A stretch of 64,000 nucleotides of DNA, from positions 92,061 through 156,060 of the forward strand of contig JBBTPY010000001.1 of NCBI GenBank assembly GCA_038065955.1, given 5' to 3'. This DNA comes from Patescibacteria group bacterium. GTDB taxonomy: Bacteria; Patescibacteriota; Minisyncoccia; UBA6257; UBA9933. Positions 4,496-54,543 of the stretch are shown here, in pieces. Position 1 is the stretch's first letter; each line of letters starts with the position of its first letter. A model generated the notes under the pieces. That model saw only the letters and a list, made by a program, of their open reading frames with translations. It searched no databases and was not told the origin of the DNA. The position numbers were made by a program, and so were the translations under genes.

Positions 4496-4506
4496 CAAAA
4501 AAATTA

Positions 4507-4545
4507 GGCGGTAATCATCATATATGATGATTACCGCCTTTTGTT
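4507..4545 (+). terminator. Rho-independent terminator downstream of tRNA-Pro
   Basis: Perfect hairpin ggcggtaatcatcatatatgatgattaccgcc followed by ttttgtt. Confidence 0.7.
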
Positions 4546-15547: not shown

Positions 15548-15618
15548 TCGGGCCAGGGCGAATCGAACGCCCACTATACCCACCCCAAGGGTACGGACTA
15601 CCACTATCCGATGGCCCG
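15548..15618 (-). tRNA. tRNA-Pro (GGG)
   Basis: Revcomp CGGGCCATCGGATAGTGGTAGTCCGTACCCTTGGGGTGGGTATAGTGGGCGTTCGATTCGCCCTGGCCCGA; anticodon loop TTGGGGT. Confidence 0.7.
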
Positions 15619-15826
15619 CTCGCTAAAAAAGTCCGCTTAAGCGAACCTTTTTAGCGAGCCCCAGCTGTTGGATTAACCCCGGCTAATACCAAGTGGGAAA
15701 ACTCAATCACAACCCTAAAGCTGTGATACTTTTGTTCTTCCTTTTAAAAATATTTGATCCGGTAATCACAGCTAAGACTCAACTATATTATAACGCCATT
15801 AAAAAATAAATACAAGGCAAGATAAA

Positions 15827-17998
15827 TTATTCCAGATGAATTTCTTCTTTAAAACGCTCAAGGCGCGCTTTAATTAACGGATAATTTTTAAGCAGAGGGT
15901 CTTTTTCAAATATTGTTTCCGCGGCCCGGCGGCTGTCTTTGACCAAATCCGGATTTTGAACAGCTTTCATCGCCAAATCAGGAATGCCGGCCTGCGTTTC
16001 GCCCAAGAATTCTCCCGGTCCGCGAATCGCCAAATCTTTTTCGGCAAGCTCAAAACCGTTTTTCGCCTCCAATAAAGAACGCAGTCTTTTGCGGGTTGTT
16101 TGCGAAGAAGAATCCGTAAAAAGAAAACAAAATGATTGGTGTTCTCCCCTGCCAACGCGGCCGCGAAACTGATAAAGCTGAGCCAATCCGAATCTGTCAC
16201 TGCCTTCAATAAACATAATCGTCGCGTTCGGCACGTCAACGCCAACTTCCACCACTGAAGTTGAGACCAAAATATCAATTCCGCCGTCTTTGAATTTTTT
16301 CATTATTTCCGTTTTTTCTTTGGCCTTTATTTTACCGTGAAGCATCACGACTTTTAAATCTGGAAAGATTTTTTGCGATAGTTTTTCATATTCCTCTTTG
16401 ACCGCTTTGACTTCAAGCCACATTCGCCTGCGAAAATCAATCTGTAAAGTTTCATCATTTTCAACTCCGGTTTCATTTACCGGCGCGGATTCTATTCTTG
16501 GACAAATCACAAAAACTTGCCGTCCTTTTTTAATCTGGTCGCGAATAAATTCATACGCTTTATTTCTGTCCGTCGGCGCCACAATTTTCGTAATTATTTC
16601 TTTTCTATTTTTCGGCAATTCATCAATAATGGATAAATCCAAATCGCCAAAAATAGTCAAAGAAAGCGTGCGCGGAATCGGCGTCGCCGACATACTTAAA
16701 AAGTGCGGAATTAATTCATTATTTTTAAGCAATTCAGCCCGCTGACGAACGCCGAAGCGATGCTGTTCGTCAATCACCGCAAAAACTAAATTATTGAATT
16801 TTACGTATTTTTGAATAAGCGAATGAGTGCCGAATACGATTTTTATTTTGCCGCTTGATATTTCTCTGACAATTTCGCTTTTTTTAACGTCGCTTTCCAA
16901 ATCGTCGCCGTAAAAAACTTTTGCGACCGAAGAAGTGATGATACCGACGCCTCCGTTAAAATCGGAAAAGAAAATCTTGAAAGTATTATAATGCTGTTGC
17001 GCCAATATTTCGGTCGGCGCCATAAAAGCGACTTGCCCGCCGGTAGGCATGGTCCGCCCATTATTTTTAACCGCGGATAAAGCGGCGAGAATTGCCACAA
17101 TTGTTTTACCCGAACCGACGTCGCCCTGCAATAATCTGTTCATCGGATGAGACTTTTTCAAATCCTGAATAATTTCCCATAATGATTTTTTCTGGGAATG
17201 CGTCAATTCAAACGGAAGTTTTTTAAATAATTCTTTTATTTCTTCCAAATCAATTTCAACGGCATGCGCTTTTTCTTCCGCCAAACGCGCGCGCTGGCGA
17301 ATATTAACCAGCTGCAAGAAAAACAAACTTTCAAAAGAGAAGCGTTTTTTAGCGTTAACCGCCTCTGAAATATTCTCGGGAAAATGAATCGCCTGAAGGC
17401 TGGTTTTTAAATCGGTAAAATTAAATGATTTTAAAATTTCTTCGGGCAAAAAATCTTCCAAAAAACCAATCTCTTTCAAGAGCGGCTGAATCAAAAACCG
17501 AAACATTTTTGAAGTAAGGCCTTTTGTTTCCGGATACACCGGCACGATTCTGCCGGTATGTTTTAATTCACTTGTATCTTTTTTCAAAGATGTAATTATT
17601 TCATGAATCGGATGCGAAAGCGCCAAGCCATTTTGCGATTCAACTACCTTTCCGGCCAAATTAACGATTATCCCTTTTTTAATTACTGTTATTAAAAATC
17701 TCTGATTAAACCAAACCGCGCGAATAGAACCGCTGTCGTCTTTCACTAAGGCCTCAATAATAAACATTCTCTTTTTCCATGTTTTCCACATCTTCACCGA
17801 AACGATTTCGCCGCGAATTACGGCGCGCTGTCCGATTTTTAAATCGCCGATTTTAGAGATATTTGAAAAATCTTCATAGCGAAAAGGAAAATGCCAAAGC
17901 AAATCCTTGATGGTTTCTATTTTAATTTTTTTCAAACGCTCAAGAGTTTTCGCTCTGGCTCCTTTTAATTGAGAAAGAGGAGTTGATAATTCAATCAT
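15827..17998 (-). CDS. recG: ATP-dependent DNA helicase RecG
   Basis: Wedge domain plus SF2 helicase motifs (GDVGSGKT, DEQHRFG); start trimmed to MIELSTPL because the longer ORF would overlap the tRNA at 18006-18077. Confidence 0.9.
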   Translation of the reverse strand: MIELSTPLSQLKGARAKTLERLKKIKIETIKDLLWHFPFRYEDFSNISKIGDLKIGQRAVIRGEIVSVKMWKTWKKRMFIIEALVKDDSGSIRAVWFNQRFLITVIKKGIIVNLAGKVVESQNGLALSHPIHEIITSLKKDTSELKHTGRIVPVYPETKGLTSKMFRFLIQPLLKEIGFLEDFLPEEILKSFNFTDLKTSLQAIHFPENISEAVNAKKRFSFESLFFLQLVNIRQRARLAEEKAHAVEIDLEEIKELFKKLPFELTHSQKKSLWEIIQDLKKSHPMNRLLQGDVGSGKTIVAILAALSAVKNNGRTMPTGGQVAFMAPTEILAQQHYNTFKIFFSDFNGGVGIITSSVAKVFYGDDLESDVKKSEIVREISSGKIKIVFGTHSLIQKYVKFNNLVFAVIDEQHRFGVRQRAELLKNNELIPHFLSMSATPIPRTLSLTIFGDLDLSIIDELPKNRKEIITKIVAPTDRNKAYEFIRDQIKKGRQVFVICPRIESAPVNETGVENDETLQIDFRRRMWLEVKAVKEEYEKLSQKIFPDLKVVMLHGKIKAKEKTEIMKKFKDGGIDILVSTSVVEVGVDVPNATIMFIEGSDRFGLAQLYQFRGRVGRGEHQSFCFLFTDSSSQTTRKRLRSLLEAKNGFELAEKDLAIRGPGEFLGETQAGIPDLAMKAVQNPDLVKDSRRAAETIFEKDPLLKNYPLIKARLERFKEEIHLE

Positions 17999-26335: not shown

Positions 26336-26400
26336 AAATGTAAAAATAAAATTAGTCATTTACTCGCATATGCGAGTAAATGACTAAAAATTTTACATTT
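26336..26400. terminator. Bidirectional terminator between convergent gpmI and eno
   Basis: Long perfect palindrome ...ttagtcatttactcgcatatgcgagtaaatgactaa... flanked by A/T runs. Confidence 0.65.
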
Positions 26401-27715
26401 TGATATTTGCATTTTGAATTGTTAATACCCTTTCATATTTCGCCAATCTTTCCGGTTTGGCCGGCGCGCCGGCTTTTATTCCCCAAGCGCCGACGCCAAT
26501 TGCCAAATCAGCTATAAAATCATCAAGCGTCTCCCCGCTTCGATGACTGACAATCGCCTGCCAATTATTTTCATAAGCGAATTTTATCACTTTTAATGTT
26601 TCAGTTAAGGTTCCTATTTGGTTAGGTTTTATTAAAATCGCATTACCGGATTTTTTATTTATGGCGATTTTTAATCGTTCAATATTGGTTGTCGTTAAAT
26701 CATCGGCAATCACTAATTTTCCGCATTGTTCCGCGTTAGTTCCGTATAATTCCGTAGTGAGTAAAGCAAATGAACTAAAATCTTCTTCATTAAACGGGTC
26801 TTCAATTGATAAAATATTATAAGTTTCAATAAGTTTTAAATAATAATTTTTTAATTCTTCCGCTGAGTATTTTTTACCGTCAACAATATAAAAACCGTCT
26901 CTATAGAATTGCGCGGCGGCAATATCCAGTCCAATCTTTAATGGATATTTATATTTTTCAATAATTTCAGCGAGACATTCGATTGCTTCTTCGTTGTTTT
27001 TAAACGGCGCGGAATAACCGGCTTCATCGCCTAAAAAAACATTTTCACTCCCAAATTTATCCTTCAAATAATTTCCCAGTTTTCTGTAAAAAATCTTGCC
27101 CAAACTGAAAGCTATGTTAAAATCGTCAACTTCGGGAATGACTTGGAATTCTTGAATTTCTAATTTTGATTCCCGATGCGTCGCGTGCGCGCCGCCATTG
27201 ATAACATTAAAAATTGGCCGAAGCAAATTTTTTGACTTACGACCAACAACCAACGACTGATGACTTATATAATTAAATAGTTCTAATCTTTCGTTTTTTG
27301 CCTTCAGCCGCGCAAATGCCAAAGATAAAGATAAAATCAAATTCCCACCGAGATTGCTTTTAGCTTGCCCTGAGCTTGTCGAAGGGGCTTGCCCTGAGCT
27401 TGTCGAAGGGGCTTGCCCTGAGCTTGTCGAAGGGGCTTGCCCTGAGCTTGTCGAAGGAGTCCCGTCCAATTCAATTAAAAAATTGTCGAAATTTTCCTGT
27501 GATTCAAATTCATTTGATAATATTTTTGTCTTAATCTCTTCAAATTTTTTAAGCGCTAATTTTGGCTCCAAAACAAACGCCTCGTGCGTTCCAATGCTTT
27601 TGCCGGCCGGTGCGCTGGCTTTGGCTGAAAAATCTTCGCTTTTTAACTCCGCTTCCAAGGTATCTTTACCGCGAGAATCTGAAATGATTTTTATATTAAT
27701 GTCGCTGATTTTCAT
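26393..27715 (-). CDS. eno: Enolase
   Basis: Conserved enolase core; contains four in-frame tandem copies of STSSGQAP encoded by a 24-bp GC-rich repeat (27362-27456), inserted in the loop between LDGTP and the N-KS-LGAN segment. Confidence 0.9.
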
Positions 27716-27988: not shown

Positions 27989-30417
27989 TTTTTTTCTTTT
28001 TGATAAACTTTCTGCGTTGTTTTAATAATCGTATCCGAATTCAAAGAAATGCTGTTAATCCCCTGTCCCACCAAAAATTCGGCGAATCCTTCTATATCCG
28101 ACGGCGCTTGACCGCAAATTCCGATGTATTTGCCTTTTTCTTTGCATTTTTTGATAACTTCGGAAATCAATTTTTTTACTGATTCGTCGTTTTCATTAGT
28201 AATGCCGCGAATCATTTCATTGCCGTCACGGTCAATGCCGACAGTTAACTGCGTCAAATCGTTTGAACCAATAGACATTCCGTCAAAAATTTCCAAAAAT
28301 TCATCGGCTAAAATGACATTTGAAGGAATTTCACACATGACATATACTTTGACTTTTGACATTTGACTTTTGACATTTGACTCTAAAAACAAACCGTTTT
28401 TTTTCATAATTTCCAAAACTTTTTTGCCTTCTTCCGGCGTCCGGCAAAACGGCACCATTACTTCCACATTATCCAAGCCCATCTCCTCGCGGACTTTTTT
28501 AACGGCTTTAAGTTCCAAAATAAACGCCGCCGCGAAATTCGGATGATAATATCTTGAAGCGCCGCGCCAGCCGATCATCGGATTTTCCTCCGACGGCTCG
28601 TACAATTCCCCGCCGATAAGCGTTCTGTATTCATTTGTTTTAAAATCAGAAAATCTTAAAATTACCGGTTTCGGATAAAAAGCCGCGCCAATTTTCGCGA
28701 TACCGTAAGCGAGCTTATCAACATAAAATTGAGTTTTGTCTTTGTAGCCAATAATTTTTTTATCAATCGCGTTTTTAATTTTCGCCGGCATTTTTTTATA
28801 ATTTATCAAAGCATTTGGGTGAATCCCGATATCTCCGGCGATAATAAATTCTTCTCTCGCCAATCCCACGCCGTCATTCGGCAAAAAAGATTTTTCAAAA
28901 GCGGTTTCCGGCGTGGCAATATTAAGCATTATTTTAGTTTTCGGCCGCGACAATTTTTTAATATCGTGTTCAATTATTTTGAATTTTAAAGCGCCATCAT
29001 AAACAAAACCATCGCTGCCGGTCGTATCAACCGTAATCATTTGGCCAGTTTTTATTTTTCGAGTGGCGCTTTCCGAACCGACAATACAAGGAATGCCAAG
29101 TTCGCGGCTTACTATTGCCGCATGAGATGTTCGTCCTCCTTTGTCCGTTACAATCGCCGAAGCGATTTTCATAATCGGTTCCCAATCCGGGTCTGTCATA
29201 TCAGTAATCAAAATTTCACCGACCTTAAATTGTCCGATATTTTTAGCGCCTAAAATTACACGCGCCTTACCCGTTGCGATTTTACTTCCAACCGATGCCC
29301 CTTTGACTAAAACATTTAACCTTTGACCTTTAACATCTGACAAAATATATTCTTTTATTTTGGAGAAATCGCGGCTGGCATGTATAGTTTCCGGTCTTGC
29401 CTGGACAATATATAACTCACCCGTTTTCCCATCCTTTGCCCACTCCATATCCATTGGCGTCCATTTGCCGTTTTTTGTCGAATAATGCTCTTCTATTAAA
29501 ATCCCCCATTTTGCCAGTTTTAAAATTTCGTCATCGCTTAAAACAAAACTTTCTTTTTCTTTTTGAGAAGTATTAATTATTTTCGTATTTTTAACGGAAA
29601 CGCCTTTGCCTTCCGAATAAATCATTTTTTGATTTTTAACGCCGAGTTTTTTATCAATAATCGCATTAGTTTTTTTGAAAACTAAAAATTCATCCGGCGT
29701 CACTTCTCCTTGAACAATCATTTCGCCAAGTCCCCATGAACCGTTTATCAAAACCGAATCCTTAAAACCGGATTCCGTGTCCAAAGTAAACATTACGCCG
29801 GAACAGCTCAAATCCGAGCGAATCATTTTTTGAACGCCGACCGATAAAGCGACTTTAAAATGGTCAAATCCTTTATCGACGCGATAAGAAACGGCGCGGT
29901 CGGTAAAAAGCGAAGCCATCGCCGATTTTACCGCTTTCAAAACTTCTTTGTCTCCGCGGATATTCAAATAAGTTTCATGCTCGCCGGCAAAAGAAGCGCC
30001 GGGCAAATCCTCGGCCGTGGCGCTTGAACGTACGGCAACATCAACGTTTTTGCCGTATTCTTTCTCTGTTTGCCGATACGCCTTAACAATTTCTTGTTTT
30101 AAATCATCCGGAAATTCCGCTTTTTTTATCGTTTCGCGGATAAGTTTTCCACGCCTTGATAAATCTTTTAAATTTTTTGTGTTTAAACCGCTAAGCGCCT
30201 CTTTTATAAATTTTTTCAATCTCATTTCTTCTAAAAAATAGCGATAAGCTTCCGCAGTAACAACAAACCCGCCCGGAATCTTTACTCCCTGCCTGCCGGC
30301 AGGCAGGCTTTTCGGCGTTAAATTTTGAATCATTTCGCCGAGAGAGGCGTTCTTTCCGCCCACCTCGGCAATGTCTTTTATGCCGACTTCGTTTAATTTT
30401 TTGATGAAAATTTTCAT
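27985..30417 (-). CDS. ppsA: Phosphoenolpyruvate synthase (pyruvate, water dikinase)
   Basis: GGKNASLGEM ATP-grasp N-terminus, central phosphohistidine domain, C-terminal PEP-utilising domain; start at MKIFIKKLNEVG; in-frame inserts VKSQMSKVKVYVM (octamer repeats 28336-28384) and a 22-bp perfect palindrome (30287-30308). Confidence 0.9.
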   Translation of the reverse strand: MKIFIKKLNEVGIKDIAEVGGKNASLGEMIQNLTPKSLPAGRQGVKIPGGFVVTAEAYRYFLEEMRLKKFIKEALSGLNTKNLKDLSRRGKLIRETIKKAEFPDDLKQEIVKAYRQTEKEYGKNVDVAVRSSATAEDLPGASFAGEHETYLNIRGDKEVLKAVKSAMASLFTDRAVSYRVDKGFDHFKVALSVGVQKMIRSDLSCSGVMFTLDTESGFKDSVLINGSWGLGEMIVQGEVTPDEFLVFKKTNAIIDKKLGVKNQKMIYSEGKGVSVKNTKIINTSQKEKESFVLSDDEILKLAKWGILIEEHYSTKNGKWTPMDMEWAKDGKTGELYIVQARPETIHASRDFSKIKEYILSDVKGQRLNVLVKGASVGSKIATGKARVILGAKNIGQFKVGEILITDMTDPDWEPIMKIASAIVTDKGGRTSHAAIVSRELGIPCIVGSESATRKIKTGQMITVDTTGSDGFVYDGALKFKIIEHDIKKLSRPKTKIMLNIATPETAFEKSFLPNDGVGLAREEFIIAGDIGIHPNALINYKKMPAKIKNAIDKKIIGYKDKTQFYVDKLAYGIAKIGAAFYPKPVILRFSDFKTNEYRTLIGGELYEPSEENPMIGWRGASRYYHPNFAAAFILELKAVKKVREEMGLDNVEVMVPFCRTPEEGKKVLEIMKKNGLFLESNVKSQMSKVKVYVMCEIPSNVILADEFLEIFDGMSIGSNDLTQLTVGIDRDGNEMIRGITNENDESVKKLISEVIKKCKEKGKYIGICGQAPSDIEGFAEFLVGQGINSISLNSDTIIKTTQKVYQKEKK

Positions 30418-31323: not shown

Positions 31324-32913
31324 TTATTTTTTATTTTTCTTTTTCAGTTTCGGTTTTGACTTTGATTTCGGTTTCTTTTTATTGGACATAATTATTTTAT
31401 AATTTTTAAAACGACCTTTTATTAGTTCATTATTTGATATTTTTAATATTACCATCAAATCCGCCACATTGAAACATTTTTGCTCGGCATATATCAAGTC
31501 GCCGGTTTTTTTGAAGAAATTGAAAGAGTCGTGGTTTTTTAAAAATTCTTCCGGTTTTAATTTTAATTTTTTCGCTTTTTCCAAAGTCAAAGAATCGCCG
31601 ATAGCTCCGGCGGCCTCGGTATTGTCGCGAGCGTCTGAAGTAAAAGAAATAAAAACTGAATCCTGATACAAAGCATTTAACATTTGACATTTGACTAGCG
31701 CACCGAGCACTGCTTCCTGATTGCGCCCGCCTTTGCCCTGAACCGCGCCGAAGGGCTTGCCCTGAACCGCGCCGAAGGGCTTGCCCTGAACCGCGCCGAA
31801 GGGCTTGCCCTGAACCGCGCCGAAGGGCTTGCCCAATTCATAATTCATAATTCCTGCCTGCCCCGTAGCGAACTTGTTCTGCTTCGGGGATTCGTGATTC
31901 AAATTTACAGTCGTTTCTCCGGCAGCGATTAAAACTTCATTTGTCTTAATTTTCGCTATCATTGATGATAGCGCCGCGCTTGCTTCTCCTTCCAGCGCTA
32001 AGGAGTGAATTTTTGATTTAAAACCCAATTCTTCGGCTTTATTCATCATTGCCATAACCGCGTCCTGATTGCAGACAAATAAAATATTGTCAACTTTCTT
32101 AAAATATTTTTGCTCTTTAGGCGTTTCGCTTAAATGAAATTTTCCCGCGTCAATTCCGTATTTTTTCAAAATATTTTCGGCATCAATCTTAGTCGTTTTA
32201 TCAAAGACCGTCGGGCCGGAAGCAACCATTGATAAATCATTGCCGCAAACATCGGAAACAATCAAAGAAACGACTTTTGCCGGATAAGCTTCCATAGTCA
32301 GCCCGCCGCCCTTAAATCTCGCTCCTGACAAATGCTTGCGAACGGCATTAAGCTCTGAAATGGCGGCTCCTGATTTGGTTAATTCTTTAATCGCCGAAAT
32401 TGATTCATTAAGCTCGGATTCGGAAGCGCAAGCCAAAGCCGAACCGCCGCCGCAAATAAAAGTAATGAGTAAATCGTCTTTATTCAAACTTTTCGCCAGT
32501 TTAATGATTTCTTGAGTGGCAATAATATTTTGTTCAGAGGGGAAAGGATGAGTTCCCTTAAAACATCTGACATTTGACTTCTGACCTTTGACAATAAAAA
32601 TATCCAGCGCGATGCCGCGAACCAATTTTTCACCTAAAATTTCAGCCAAATTTGAAACCGCCAAAGCGGAACCCTTCCCGACACCGACAATGAAAATCCG
32701 CTTAAAATCGTTTAAATTAATTTTAAGCGAATTTTTGGCGCTACCGCTCGCGCCAACATATTCAATAATTTCTAAAACGCCGTTTTTTATCTTAATCCGG
32801 TTTTTAATGATTTTTTCAATCTCAATCGCCTCATAACCAGCCTCTGCGATTTGAAGCGTCTTTTTTCTTAAATCATTTTTCGCCAGATTTTTTAAATTAG
32901 TGATTATTGACAT
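31324..32913 (-). CDS. Glycerate 2-kinase, MOFRL family (GckA/TtuD-like)
   Basis: GVGKGSALAV, GGGSAL, GETTV and GGRNQE motifs; four in-frame tandem copies of GKPFGAVQ from a 24-bp GC-rich repeat (31733-31833); Lys-rich C-terminal tail. Confidence 0.75.
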   Translation of the reverse strand: MSIITNLKNLAKNDLRKKTLQIAEAGYEAIEIEKIIKNRIKIKNGVLEIIEYVGASGSAKNSLKINLNDFKRIFIVGVGKGSALAVSNLAEILGEKLVRGIALDIFIVKGQKSNVRCFKGTHPFPSEQNIIATQEIIKLAKSLNKDDLLITFICGGGSALACASESELNESISAIKELTKSGAAISELNAVRKHLSGARFKGGGLTMEAYPAKVVSLIVSDVCGNDLSMVASGPTVFDKTTKIDAENILKKYGIDAGKFHLSETPKEQKYFKKVDNILFVCNQDAVMAMMNKAEELGFKSKIHSLALEGEASAALSSMIAKIKTNEVLIAAGETTVNLNHESPKQNKFATGQAGIMNYELGKPFGAVQGKPFGAVQGKPFGAVQGKPFGAVQGKGGRNQEAVLGALVKCQMLNALYQDSVFISFTSDARDNTEAAGAIGDSLTLEKAKKLKLKPEEFLKNHDSFNFFKKTGDLIYAEQKCFNVADLMVILKISNNELIKGRFKNYKIIMSNKKKPKSKSKPKLKKKNKK

Positions 32914-38500: not shown

Positions 38501-38628
38501 TACACCCTCCTTTTTTAATTGGTTTTTATATTTATCCTTATTTGAAAATTTTCAAAAAACTAAAGATTATTAAAACAGAAAATGAAAATTTTTACAAGAG
38601 AATCAACAATGTGTTGAGTTTTGACAAT

Positions 38629-38666
38629 GTCCTCAATTTAACCACATATGTGGGTAAATTGAGGAC
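38629..38666. promoter_or_regulatory. 38-bp near-perfect palindrome (operator-like) upstream of the 86-aa/358-aa cassette, overlapping a TTGACA -35-like hexamer
   Basis: gtcctcaatttaacc-acatatgt-gggtaaattgaggac; 15-bp arms with 1 mismatch, central acatatgt also palindromic. Confidence 0.45.
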
Positions 38667-38691
38667 ATAATATTTTAATTCGCGCAATAAA

Positions 38692-41144: not shown

Positions 41145-41545
41145 CAAAAAAGTTTATTAAAGAAACAATCCTTTGTCCTGGGAATGCTAGTGGTAGGCCT
41201 GCAAAGAAATTTTTACCAAGGACAGCATATTATCGCTTGCTAGGTAATATGTCCTCCTTAAAAAAAGGTAAAAGTAGGTGGGGTTCGACTCCTCCCATTC
41301 TTGTCTGATTGGCAAGAACACTGTGTAGGATAGGCGGGAGACTATGAAGTTTAAGCGTCCAGCAAGGGACCACGCGCCAGCGGTAAACTGAGTCGCCGTT
41401 GAAATACCGCCCTTTGTTCAGGAGAAAAACCCGGCAGGCAATTAGTCTAAAGTTAAGACTATGCTGGCCGGAACTAATCAGACTCGGGACAAAATTTTCT
41501 CATGGCCGAAAAGTAATTTATTTACTGAGTAGGCCTTTTTTTATT
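41145..41545 (+). ncRNA. rnpB: Candidate structured ncRNA (~400 nt), possibly RNase P RNA (type A-like)
   Basis: No ORF; promoter-like TTGACA-17-TATTTAAT at about 41107-41140 and terminator aggccttttttt at the end. GCGG-UAAAC...GUUG-AAAUA-CCGC resembles the P15 internal loop (GGUAAAC/AAAUA) that binds the tRNA CCA; GUCCUGGG (5') can pair with CUCGGGAC (3') like a P4 helix; the length matches. No clear AGGAAAGUCC CR-I. Confidence 0.35.
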
Positions 41546-41597
41546 TCTAATTTTAAATTTTAACCTTTAAAATAAAAATAATTTGAATAAAAACTCA

Positions 41598-41636
41598 ATT
41601 TCGGTTATTTCAACGATAGTTGAAATAACCGAAATT
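41598..41636. repeat. 40-bp palindromic repeat element, copy 1 (variant centre)
   Basis: aatttcggttatttcaacgatagttgaaataaccgaaatt; near-identical copies at 42408-42446 and 54400-54439. Confidence 0.85.
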
Positions 41637-41771
41637 GTAGAATACAAAAACTATCTGAATAACTATCTAAATACAAAACTATTTTTCATCGACAATATAT
41701 ATAAATTTATATAAAAATGTGAATATTCCACTTAAAAATAAATGCTTCCCGCTTTAAAAATTTCACTAATT

Positions 41772-42365
41772 TTATTTAATTCCGAATTTATTTTTCAAAT
41801 CTAAATCAATGTCTGTCTTTTTAGCAAGTATTATTCTGACATACGGCTTTAAATTAAAAATTTCCACGATAAAATCTATTTCATTTTGGCATTCGTAAGG
41901 ATAAATAAAAACGCTTTTTTGGAGCGGGTAAAACCCTAATTGTTTCAATTTAACCGCCAGCGCGTTTCTTCCCTGTTTAAGATGTTCAGGGATATCGAAA
42001 ATAACCATTCTCCATAATCCATCCCATTGCGACGGTTTTTTTATTTCTATTTTATCTAAATTGTATGTAAGCGCCCGCTTTTTTCCCTCGCTATTTAAAA
42101 CCAAAGTAATTGTATCATTATCATTTTCTTTATAATCAATTAATTTTGACCTGTATAGATTTTTAATCGCTTCGTGGAGGGTGCGTCTATTAATATCTTT
42201 CCATTCTTTTTTCATCCCATCAACAATTCTAAAATACGCATCCGGTCTTTGCGTTAAAGATAAAACCAAGCCGCCCTCCAATAGAAGAAGAATTTTTTGA
42301 GCCACTGGTCCTAATTGTAATCTTTTCCCCTTGTTTCTTTTTATAAAATTTTCATTTCTTTTCAT
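41772..42365 (-). CDS. PaaX-like regulator (winged-helix N-terminus plus Cas2-fold PaaX_C-like C-terminus)
   Basis: WDGLWRMVIFDIPEHLKQGRNALAVKLKQLGFYPLQKSVFIYP matches the PaaX C-terminal (Cas2-like) pattern; flanked on both sides by the 40-bp palindrome. Confidence 0.55.
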   Translation of the reverse strand: MKRNENFIKRNKGKRLQLGPVAQKILLLLEGGLVLSLTQRPDAYFRIVDGMKKEWKDINRRTLHEAIKNLYRSKLIDYKENDNDTITLVLNSEGKKRALTYNLDKIEIKKPSQWDGLWRMVIFDIPEHLKQGRNALAVKLKQLGFYPLQKSVFIYPYECQNEIDFIVEIFNLKPYVRIILAKKTDIDLDLKNKFGIK

Positions 42366-42407
42366 AAAAATCTTTTCATAAAAAATTATAAGAATTATAT
42401 CACATCA

Positions 42408-42446
42408 ATTTCGGTTATTTCAACGATCGTTGAAATAACCGAAATT
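42408..42446. repeat. 40-bp palindromic repeat element, copy 2
   Basis: aatttcggttatttcaacgatcgttgaaataaccgaaatt perfect palindrome, with shared flanks attatatcayatc... and ...gRctgaaacattaaa. Confidence 0.85.
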
Positions 42447-42447
42447 G

Positions 42448-42590
42448 ACTGAAACATTAAATATTCTCCTGTAAACCCCGTTAGAAGCTCACGCGAGACA
42501 TTAAACCCCGTGTTCGCTAAAACAACAGAGAGCATTCATCCCCGCGGCAAGCCACGGGACATTCTGCTTCTAACGGGGTAAAATTAATAA
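42448..42590 (+). promoter_or_regulatory. Highly structured ~120-nt leader upstream of smpB (candidate cis-regulatory RNA/sRNA)
   Basis: 13-bp outer stem ccccgttagaagc...gcttctaacgggg enclosing an inner cccgtg/cacggg stem; ends at the smpB ATG. Confidence 0.35.
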
Positions 42591-43022
42591 ATGATTATCG
42601 CCGCCAATAAACGAGCGTATTTTGACTACCAAATTCTTGAAACTTTTGAGGCCGGGATTGAATTAAAAGGATTTGAAGTTAAATCAATAAAAAACGGCAG
42701 GATAAACCTCGCCGGTTCTTACGCCGTCATCCGCGATAATCAAGCGTGGCTTCTTAACGCCGATATTCCGGCTTACCAACCGAAGAACGCGCCGAAAAAT
42801 TACGATTCCAAAAGAACGCGGCGGCTTTTACTGAAAAAATTGGAAATAAAAAACTTAATCGGCCGCATTCATGAAAAAGGCTTGACTTTGACTCCTTTAA
42901 AAGTTTATACTAAAAATCACAGAATAAAGATGGAAATCGGGTTAGGGAAAAGCAGAAAAAAAGCGGACAAAAGAGAATTAATAAAGAAAAGGGATGTTAA
43001 ACGAGAAATCAGACGGGAATGA
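42591..43022 (+). CDS. smpB: SsrA-binding protein
   Basis: 143 aa; N-terminal NKRAYFDY...E.GIEL.G.EVKS and basic C-terminal tail. Confidence 0.9.
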   Translation: MIIAANKRAYFDYQILETFEAGIELKGFEVKSIKNGRINLAGSYAVIRDNQAWLLNADIPAYQPKNAPKNYDSKRTRRLLLKKLEIKNLIGRIHEKGLTLTPLKVYTKNHRIKMEIGLGKSRKKADKRELIKKRDVKREIRRE

Positions 43023-43029
43023 CAGGAAT

Positions 43030-43390
43030 CGATGACAGCACTTTTATAAAATCGCAAGCCGAGGACGATTCGTCACCTCGTCAATCATCGAATCAAAATC
43101 ATATCTGCCAAAAACAGATTAGCCAATTATTTGGCTCCCGCTTTCGCTTTCGCCTAAGCGGCATCCGCTTTTAATCGCTTGAATTAAAAGACCGGGTGTA
43201 ATATTTTAAGCTATGGTTGATGTTCCGCCGAAAACATCTGCTGAAAATTATCGGCAAAGAGTTTTGAAGATTTCGTTAAGTTTTAACTTCTAAATTCTAT
43301 ATCCTAACTTGACTAAGCTCGTAGAAATTTTATAAATTTATTGTCAGACGGGGCTTCAATGCCCCCATTTCCACACAAATTTAAAAATTA
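43030..43390 (+). ncRNA. ssrA: Candidate tmRNA (ssrA) region immediately downstream of smpB; speculative
   Basis: No protein ORF. A short frame GCC AAU UAU UUG GCU CCC GCU UUC GCU UUC GCC UAA (43122-43157) = ANYLAPAFAFA*, tag-like and preceded by an A-rich tract with UAG as in known tmRNAs. Stable hairpins after the stop; 3' GGGGCUUCAAUGCCCC T-arm-like hairpin. The 5'/3' acceptor pairing could not be confirmed. Confidence 0.3.
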
Positions 43391-54324: not shown

Positions 54325-54399
54325 ATATTTTTATTATGAATAATAATATTAATAAATAAAAAATTGAAAGTCAAGATTATATCATAATTATATCATATC

Positions 54400-54439
54400 A
54401 ATTTCGGTTATTTCAACGATCGTTGAAATAACCGAAATT
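54400..54439. repeat. 40-bp palindromic repeat element, copy 3
   Basis: Identical to copy 2, including flanks tatatcatatc... and ...ggctgaaacattaaa; intergenic between rpsP and smc. Confidence 0.85.
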
Positions 54440-54543
54440 GGCTGAAACATTAAAAACATTAAATGTTCTTCTGTAAAATTATCTGTAAAATTATCTGTAA
54501 AATTAATAAATGATTATATCTTTATGTATTAAAAGTGTTTCTT

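Follow-up and report, generated by a model that had tools for sequence, protein, structure and literature searches.

In Escherichia coli, PaaX has a 39-bp operator of the form TGATTC-N27-GAATCA and shuts off its own promoter by steric hindrance (PMC9493321). The present analysis concerns a 64,000-nucleotide stretch of DNA from a Patescibacteria group bacterium (GenBank assembly GCA_038065955.1, contig JBBTPY010000001.1, positions 92,061 to 156,060 of the forward strand), in the following called the window, in which two copies of a long perfect palindrome enclose the gene of a 197-amino acid protein related to PaaX and a third copy lies in front of rpsP. From sequence comparisons we consider it probable that the protein is a truncated, autoregulated repressor of the PaaX family, with the palindromes as its operators, and that the unit to which they belong was copied in front of housekeeping genes of this genome.

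Autoregulators that have operators on both sides of their gene and employ DNA looping are represented by the lambda CI (OL/OR), Gal and Lac repressors, and dispersed repeats that carry promoters by the Correia elements of Neisseria. To our knowledge, gene regulation has hardly been explored in the Patescibacteria (candidate phyla radiation, CPR); their genomes are tiny and encode few regulators. In the literature on PaaX with Cas2 and on Patescibacteria regulons we found no description of the system.

The palindromes and the gene between them

The palindrome, a 40-mer of the sequence AATTTCGGTTATTTCAACGATCGTTGAAATAACCGAAATT, occurs at three sites in the window, where none was expected by chance (100 shuffles). 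The three copies and the gene enclosed by the first two are located as follows.

41596-41637, palindrome copy 1: 42 bp of perfect symmetry, centre CGATAG (40-mer pattern at 41597-41636 with one mismatch)
41772-42365, minus strand, mini-PaaX gene of 197 amino acids: probable winged-helix N-terminus and Cas2-like PaaX_M domain, no PaaX_C domain
42405-42448, palindrome copy 2: 44 bp of perfect symmetry, centre CGATCG (40-mer at 42407-42446)
54399-54440, palindrome copy 3: 42 bp of perfect symmetry (40-mer at 54400-54439)

The first-pass annotation of this DNA, made from the letters alone, had already recorded a perfect 40-bp palindrome in three copies, the third between rpsP and smc, and had seen that the other two flank the 197-codon open reading frame (ORF) at 41772-42365, which is on the minus strand. 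Both observations were confirmed; the symmetry, perfect as described, really extends over 42-44 bp, and of the coordinates given at the time those of the third copy were right and the starts of the first two off by one.

Copy 1 is situated 135 nt 3' of the regulator gene and has on its other side a converging noncoding, RNA-like stretch. Copy 2 is in the intergenic region from which the regulator gene and smpB diverge, and copy 3 lies between the stop codon of smc (54544) and the start codon of rpsP (54324). A search of the window for half-sites, weak copies and copies of the flanks alone found none elsewhere, and Rfam scans, run with gathering as well as with E-value thresholds, assigned the palindromes to no known RNA family and gave only microRNA-like hairpin matches attributable to chance.

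The regulator protein

The protein had been labeled PaaX-like with a Cas2 fold at first pass, and the label is borne out by a domain match and by the closest fold. Residues 112-184 match PaaX_M ('PaaX central Cas2-like domain', PF20803) with 74.8 bits (cut-off 24; E = 6.1e-21). In residues 20-100 the AlphaFold2 model (predicted local distance difference test, pLDDT, 76.6; predicted template modeling score, pTM, only 0.48) shows helices, then a beta hairpin as a wing and another helix, and after them a ferredoxin-like domain. Compared with the PDB by Foldseek, it has as its top match PaaX from E. coli W (8A39, E = 1e-4) over 137 aligned columns, which exceeds the Cas2-like part alone; next come Rv0674 from Mycobacterium tuberculosis and then many Cas2 structures. 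The kinship with PaaX is visible only in this fold comparison, a profile search of the PDB sequences having returned a weak match to Cas2 (3EXC) alone.

Neither the Pfam model of the PaaX N-terminal domain nor that of the effector domain PaaX_C matched the protein, which ends at residue 197. The score with TIGR02277 (NCBIfam) is 21.5 bits at a cut-off of 264.55 and thus far under equivalog level. The Cas2 models remained below threshold (PF09827, 18.4 vs. 23.8; TIGR01573, 20.8 vs. 24.5), PADLOC gave weak Cas2 matches only, and no HUH or other transposase was matched in Pfam, NCBIfam or PADLOC, which returned only PaaX_M and weak Cas2. The neighbors of the gene in the window are smpB, the tmRNA gene, infC and argS, and in eight related loci other housekeeping genes; paa catabolic genes were found neither in the window nor in these eight loci, and cas genes or CRISPR-type arrays were listed neither in the repeat scan of the window nor near the gene in the related loci. 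Because the effector domain is missing, no paa genes are nearby and the score is far under the equivalog cut-off, the protein, a truncated PaaX-family regulator, is not a PaaX orthologue. Without the effector domain of PaaX the signal to which it would respond cannot be named.

The family is large and, within the Patescibacteria, well conserved. A homology search yielded 678 homologues in Patescibacteria (60-100% identity among the matches listed), which come from Nealsonbacteria, Wolfebacteria and other Parcubacteria, and a search of cluster representatives yielded 1640 clusters (50% identity, E ≤ 1e-10), mostly of 180-200 amino acids. The Cas2-like motifs FDIPE...QKSVF of the C-terminal domain are invariant across the family.

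Co-occurrence of gene and palindromes in other lineages

Seven related loci with the gene were compared (L005, L008 and L014-L018; L numbers designate loci), three with smpB/argS as neighbors and four without. In all seven at least one palindrome is found upstream and at least one downstream of the gene, with lengths of 34-58 bp and the centres CGATCG, CGATAG or CTATAG. In a palindrome scan of approximately 118 kb of related loci, 12 of the 13 long palindromes with these centres were no more than about 250 bp away from the gene; this count does not include the upstream sites of L008, L015 and L016, which are less perfect and were recognized by inspection of the sequence. The sites are AATTCCTGTTATTCAAACGATCGTTGGAATAACAGGAATT upstream and AATTCCCGTTATTTCAACGATCGTTGAAATAACGGGAATT downstream in L005, sequences containing TTACGGTTATTCCAGCGATCGCTGGAATAACCGTAA upstream and TTGCGGTTATTCCAACGATCGTTGGAATAACCGCAA downstream in L014, TTTACATATTTTCAAACGATCGTTTGAAAATATGTAAA on each side of the gene in L017, and CACCCATAACAGCGATCGCTGTTATGGGTG upstream with two further palindromes downstream in L018 from Wolfebacteria; L016 has a CTATAG centre with 29-bp arms. 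The pairs of putative operators enclosing the gene are 650-830 bp apart. Beyond the seven loci, the sites of L036 and L037 also accompany a regulator gene.

The order smpB-gene-argS is held in four lineages, in which the proteins are 73-100% identical to that of the window; remoter homologues (64-66% identical) have wholly different neighbors. Because gene and palindromes co-occur whatever the neighbors, the gene is to be regarded as conserved and resident and the palindromes as tied to it. This bears on an option raised at first pass, namely that a small mobile cassette carries the regulator gene and has the flanking palindromes as its ends. Bracketing on both sides and the differing neighbors in remoter lineages would be in keeping with a cassette, but the gene is a conserved one of Parcubacteria, it has kept its place between smpB and argS in the four lineages, each examined locus has a single copy of it and no linked recombinase, and a scan of viral contigs revealed no relatives of the protein. 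The option is therefore not supported and we regard it as extremely unlikely.

In L036 and L037 the genes on either side of the downstream copy converge, and A-runs and T-runs flank this copy; in L017 the downstream copy provides a TTGAAA box at 18 nt from a CATAAT before the next gene. We read the downstream copy as a putative second operator, which may double as terminator or as promoter of the next gene.

Predicted promoters at the palindromes

Promoters are predicted at two of the three copies in the window, at copy 2 by a consensus scan.

42394-42423, minus strand, predicted promoter of the regulator gene: -35 box TTGAAA (42423-42418) within the palindrome, 18-nt spacer, extended -10 box TGaTATAAT (hexamer 42399-42394)
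54387-54416, minus strand, predicted promoter of the rpsP operon: -35 box TTGAAA (54416-54411) within the palindrome, TG, -10 box TATAAT (54392-54387), read in register with copy 2

The regulator promoter has 11 of 12 consensus matches plus the TG. The rpsP promoter, which has rpsP-KH-trmD downstream of it on the minus strand, is identical to the regulator's own. Owing to its symmetry copy 2 carries two TTGAAA boxes back-to-back with CGATCG between them. A -35 box inside or abutting the palindrome is likewise found in L005, L008, L014, L015 and L018; in the last four only 6-7 nt separate the -10 box from the ATG, so that the mRNAs would be leaderless. By these predictions the upstream palindrome is 5' of the transcription start and outside the mRNA, and therefore should function at the DNA level. 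That the palindromes are operators, the third copy marking another regulated promoter, had been one of the options at first pass, and it is now the best supported one, by the co-occurrence of gene and palindromes, by the overlap with the -35 boxes of the predicted regulator and rpsP promoters and by the PaaX-like span.

Alternatively, the palindromes could be RNA or DNA hairpins (terminators, RNase III sites or other processing signals) unrelated to the neighboring protein. As RNA, the palindrome is predicted to fold into a hairpin with a stem of 19 bp and a free energy of -24.8 kcal/mol; with AGTTTTTATT after it on the minus strand, copy 1 obtains the score of a terminator. Base-pair covariation of the arms is strong (see below), the downstream copies of L036 and L037 have the surroundings just described, and the genome possesses other long perfect palindromes at 3' ends, e.g., at 26352-26387 between the convergent genes gpmI and eno. 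A stem-loop followed by a U-run, as in an intrinsic terminator, is present at copy 1 (minus strand) and at the downstream copies of L036 and L037, and not at copy 2 or the upstream copies. Copy 2, the copy of locus L026 and all upstream copies are between divergent or 5'-facing genes, and because the predicted promoters fire outward there would be no transcript to terminate at them. In addition, a generic hairpin would not be expected to hold its CGATCG centre across lineages or to track one gene family through changing neighborhoods. Hence we consider this explanation quite unlikely.

A unit of palindrome, promoters and flanks

Copies 2 and 3 have more than the palindrome in common. The parts of the flank on the smpB side are:

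42449-42475, plus strand, proximal flank of copy 2: GACTGAAACATTAAATATTCTCCTGTAAA, also present in copy 3 and at L026, L045, L053 and L069
42476-42578, GC-rich insertion of 103 nt: 13-bp terminal inverted repeats CCCCGTTAGAAGC / GCTTCTAACGGGG, TAAA on both sides
42579-42598, plus strand, distal flank of copy 2: -10 box TAAAAT (42579-42584), 6 nt, start of smpB ATGATTAT (42591-42598)
54441-54517, plus strand, corresponding flank of copy 3: tandem duplications of 9 nt and 12 nt, ends with TAAAATTAATAAATGATTAT, no gene behind

The extra identity around copies 2 and 3 had been put at about 15 bp on each side and the unit at about 70 bp. Common flanks do exist, and they are longer: 42387-42475 is similar to 54380-54477 and 42577-42598 to 54496-54517, which makes a unit of about 110 bp. 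Outside the palindrome, this amounts to about 20 nt on one side and, on the smpB side, to about 30 nt plus a separate 22 nt. Copy 1 has only the 42-bp palindrome in common with the other copies and not the flanks. When the copies are oriented, an asymmetric unit emerges that consists of ATCATTTATTAATTTTACAGGAGAATATTTAATGTTTCAGYC, the palindrome and GATATGATATAAT, and that reads outward on the ATCATTTATTAATTTTACAGGAGAATATTTAATGTTTCAGYC side CTGAAA, 17 nt, TAAAAT, 6 nt, ATGATT. Unit copies elsewhere carry ATGATT(A/T)T like the start of smpB, and at L005, in a relative, smpB also starts with ATGATTATC. Because the end of the unit includes the start of smpB (ATGATTAT), which is ancestral in L005 (ATGATTATC), the unit was most likely copied out from the intergenic region between regulator gene and smpB and not inserted before smpB.

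The 103-nt insertion splits the smpB-side flank of copy 2 and stands outside the palindrome unit. Its end furnishes a -35-like GGGACA at 17 nt from the TAAAAT of smpB, and it was found at this single locus among all DNA examined. It may represent a miniature inverted-repeat transposable element (MITE) or, within the smpB mRNA, a structure at the 5' end.

The similarity between aligned unit copies ends at different points, after 0, 14, 33-34 or 45-48 nt on one side and after 0, 13 or 23 nt on the other; terminal repeats, fixed ends and target duplications were not found on them. In the genome GCA_964642155.1 the dispersed copies L010 and L013, the latter upstream of trmD, have another set of flanks in common. 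Because the flank sets differ between lineages, each lineage appears to homogenize its own copies.

Number and location of the copies

A tight core pattern, applied to one genome per species, was found at only five loci, four in GCA_964642155.1 and one in GCA_038057075.1, and the idea of a high-copy repeat was rejected on this count. The first genome has at least five copies, including a degenerate upstream copy missed by the pattern, and the second at least three, including the two that flank the regulator gene. A looser pattern applied to metagenome contigs gave 53 loci, about 45 of them long-armed. The Hainich sample H51, which has contigs identical to the window, contained eight further copies at seven loci with similar coverage (3-4x); they have the identical 40-mer, with one copy carrying a symmetric variant at one position. 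We infer that these contigs belong to the genome of the window, the copy number of which is then a lower bound: three in the window plus at least eight in the same sample. The further loci include:

L026, copy between rpsO and an xerC-like gene
L032, copies at 2244-2287 and 2875-2922 around a LexA-domain gene, upstream of a response regulator; one with AATTGCGG...CCGCAATT
L045, copy before glyS
L053, copy between def and fmt
L043 and L069, one further locus each with copies

The bracketed LexA-domain gene in L032 had raised the idea of a LexA operator, which was dropped: the palindromes track the PaaX_M gene in seven loci.

Every copy is intergenic and most of them face at least one gene start. 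At first pass a family of repetitive extragenic palindromic (REP) elements or MITEs had been offered as a third option, together with the advice to count the copies and see whether they are randomly placed. What remains of this option is that the copies are dispersed and have common flanks; they are few (all counts being lower bounds), intergenic throughout and mostly facing gene starts, unlike a random high-copy MITE, and they have the palindrome in their centre and no fixed ends. That a classical MITE or REP family stands near the gene by chance is accordingly very improbable. In being a repeat of about 100 bp that is dispersed between genes and highly identical from copy to copy, the unit looks like such a family, but the palindrome is central and not terminal, the boundaries vary by 0-48 and 0-23 nt without target-site duplications, one reference genome gave just four core-pattern matches plus one variant copy, and the smpB-side end of the unit, which contains the first 8 nt of smpB, ancestral in L005, indicates copying out rather than insertion.

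A related possibility, which we consider unlikely, is a partnership as in the REPIN/RAYT systems, in which the palindromes are self-propagating or evolve in concert and the Cas2-fold protein is their handler (e.g., nicking, copying or homogenizing them) and not an ordinary transcription factor. Cognate palindromes bracket the gene in every lineage; the copies of one genome are near-identical and differ from those of other genomes; the variable flank ends are those expected of conversion or duplication tracts; copies are all-or-none and the rpsP copy is a lineage-specific gain; and the Cas2-like motifs are invariant in the family. Yet the protein matches neither an HUH nor another transposase, it has a probable winged helix and its closest fold is that of a repressor. 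Copies number only about 5-11 or more per genome and lack target-site duplications and fixed ends, and the position of the palindrome on the -35 box is conserved. A variant of this idea has the RAYT/REPIN-like partnership built on another fold, with a protein that would recognize the palindrome, perhaps as a hairpin or cruciform (CGATCG loop), and promote its copying or homogenization, with palindrome and promoters spreading together to new intergenic sites and rewiring housekeeping genes in the reduced genomes of Patescibacteria; we give it a small chance.

Symmetry of the arms and the GATC centre

In 37 distinct sites the arms are lineage-specific and yet symmetric, 12 of 19 position pairs having changed on both sides. 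Paired cells amount to 92.7%, compared with 76% in shuffles and 23-45% with the pairing slid; columns fixed by the search pattern never vary and are uninformative on symmetry. Among 41 unfiltered pattern matches, all four free inner positions are complementary in 17 and all eight free outer positions in 16. As a control, the two distinct pattern matches in viral contigs show no extended symmetry and are chance matches. Dispersed copies carry the arm signature of the copies that flank their own regulator gene (TTCCTG/TTCCCG in CAZXNT01, TTACGG/TTGCGG in JBBUDV01, TTTCGG in the window), and a single copy in L032 has a symmetric double change (AATTGCGG...CCGCAATT). Template switching is known to perfect near-palindromes. 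The symmetry fits a dimeric binder, a functional hairpin or cruciform, or a mutational bias, and taken alone is not decisive.

The centre behaves differently from the arms. CGATCG is kept across most lineages despite unrelated arms; in the window GATC is about 7.5-fold under-represented (27 observed, 203 expected), and of only three CGATCG (21.5 expected) two are palindrome centres. Because GATC is retained at the centre in a GATC-depleted genome, the centre appears to be under selection, possibly in interplay with methylation or restriction. The recurrent centre CGATAG, which removes the GATC, is found in copy 1, L012, L013 and L015.

The window also avoids TCGA (78 observed, 352 expected), and GGCC, AATT and CATATG are not avoided. 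The avoidance of GATC, TCGA and CGATCG suggests pressure from restriction systems. L066 has two CGATCG-centred palindromes with unrelated arms (159-214 and 230-267), 16 bp apart, before one gene, and L015 has at 16345-16390 a second arm type within one genome. Two arm types in one genome hint at paralogous regulators with a common centre.

Proposed mode of action

In the autoregulation that we favor, a dimer of the 197-amino acid protein would bind the 40-bp symmetric site. Since copy 2 spans the -35 box and the spacer of the predicted regulator promoter, the bound dimer would exclude RNA polymerase and turn off its own transcription, much as PaaX does at Px. The downstream copy would be a second operator and may also terminate transcription; formation of a DNA loop around the gene is a speculative possibility. 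The operator together with the promoter sequences of both sides would have been copied to other intergenic sites, with the region between regulator gene and smpB as apparent source. The new sites include those before rpsP-KH-trmD in the window and, on contigs of the same sample, those at glyS, fmt, the xerC-like gene next to rpsO, the LexA-domain gene and the response regulator, and by these sites housekeeping genes would come under the control of the regulator.

Several observations fit this proposal poorly. The effector domain of PaaX is absent from the protein. Downstream copies often lie between convergent genes, and those of L036 and L037 resemble bidirectional terminators. The copies in the window are all-or-none, which is unusual for a regulon, and an identity of at least 90% over flanks of up to about 48 nt plus about 23 nt is not explained by operator function alone. 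For the near-perfect 40-bp symmetry and the symmetric double changes, selection for a cruciform or hairpin and template-switch repair are explanations no worse than binding of a dimer. Finally, the rpsP site is absent from three remoter relatives, in which rpsP is 73-78% identical. Wolfebacteria, among them, do have the regulator family; in two of the three the smc-rpsP spacer is 58 nt long, as compared to 219 nt in the window. Because of this absence the rpsP site is a lineage-specific gain and the targets beyond the regulator are not stable. The universal feature is the bracketing of the regulator gene alone.

The analysis provides a testable pair, a conserved family of regulators of about 190 amino acids and most likely its 40-bp site, with candidate targets in translation and housekeeping (smpB, rpsP-trmD, glyS and fmt). 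Copying a promoter-plus-operator unit around the genome would be a direct route to the growth of a regulon. It also raises the question why perfect symmetry and a GATC centre are maintained in a GATC-depleted genome.

Other features of the window

On the other side of copy 1, at 41148-41545 (plus strand), about 390 nt form a noncoding stretch that is richer in GC. A perfect -35 box TTGACA precedes the stretch, UUUGUCCUGGG / CUCGGGACAAA are the strands of a closing stem, and the end is marked by a T-run. Its part 41316-41419 matches positions 2129-2212 (L1 stalk) of bacterial 23S rRNA (34 bits, E = 8.6e-9), no rRNA gene having been detected in the window, and a tRNA-like T-arm, GGGGUUCGACUCCUCCC, just precedes this part. 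The stretch may be an RNA that mimics the L1 stalk. On the other side of the regulator gene, the tmRNA gene (43015-43376) begins 8 nt inside the end of smpB (42591-43022); because of this overlap smpB and ssrA form one unit adjoining the regulator.

Further palindromes of 36-42 bp with at most two mismatches and the centres CATATG, ATATAT or TTAAG are present at 4503-4542, 15618-15659, 26352-26387 (between gpmI and eno, as mentioned above) and 38627-38668 (between a DUF192 gene and an 86-amino acid gene). They may serve as operators for further regulators or as terminators that lack a U-run. GC-rich tandem repeats of 24 nt are found at 27341-27493, where they encode a repeated PSTSSGQA in the enolase gene, and at 31733-31837. 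Repeats with a 7-nt period, ACATTTGACATTTGAC, each of about 35 nt, occur at 28352, 29312, 32563, 34055, 39381, 40357, 45354 and 62382; at least three sites of this type are inside long ORFs (argS and a PolX-like gene), where they would encode motifs such as VKCQMSKV, and the repeats appear to be a family of in-frame insertions.

Comparison with known systems

The C-terminal domain has the fold of Cas2 and VapD and their motifs (beta1 ...FDIPE / ...QKSVF), but unlike in Cas2 the scores are under the model cut-offs, and no cas gene or CRISPR-type array is listed nearby. With the Correia elements the unit has in common that it is an intergenic repeat of about 100 bp giving its neighbors outward promoters; it differs from them in its link to one regulator gene and in the absence of target duplications, fixed ends and terminal inverted repeats.

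The RAYT-REP/REPIN systems also comprise a vertically inherited gene flanked by cognate palindromes, which are dispersed in intergenic regions and uniform within a genome. Here, however, there is no HUH tyrosine transposase, the copies number about ten and not hundreds, and promoters face outward from them. As in the looping autoregulators, two cognate sites enclose the regulator gene, here 650-830 bp apart, and a loop between them may be envisaged by analogy.

The closest described system is that of PaaX (8A39, 3L09), which in E. coli and Pseudomonas acts as a repressor responsive to phenylacetyl-CoA. The sequence of the site is unrelated to that of the PaaX operator, is symmetric throughout and has a CGATCG centre, PaaX_C is lacking and paa genes are not nearby, the gene is bracketed on both sides, and the putative targets are in translation and housekeeping. 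Both proteins have PaaX_M, which is the dimerization domain of PaaX and follows a winged helix there and a probable one here. The symmetric operator of PaaX, about 39 bp long, overlaps the promoter of its own gene and gives autorepression by exclusion of RNA polymerase (PMC9493321), and the putative operator described here, with a span of 40-42 bp, likewise lies on the -35 box of the predicted regulator promoter.

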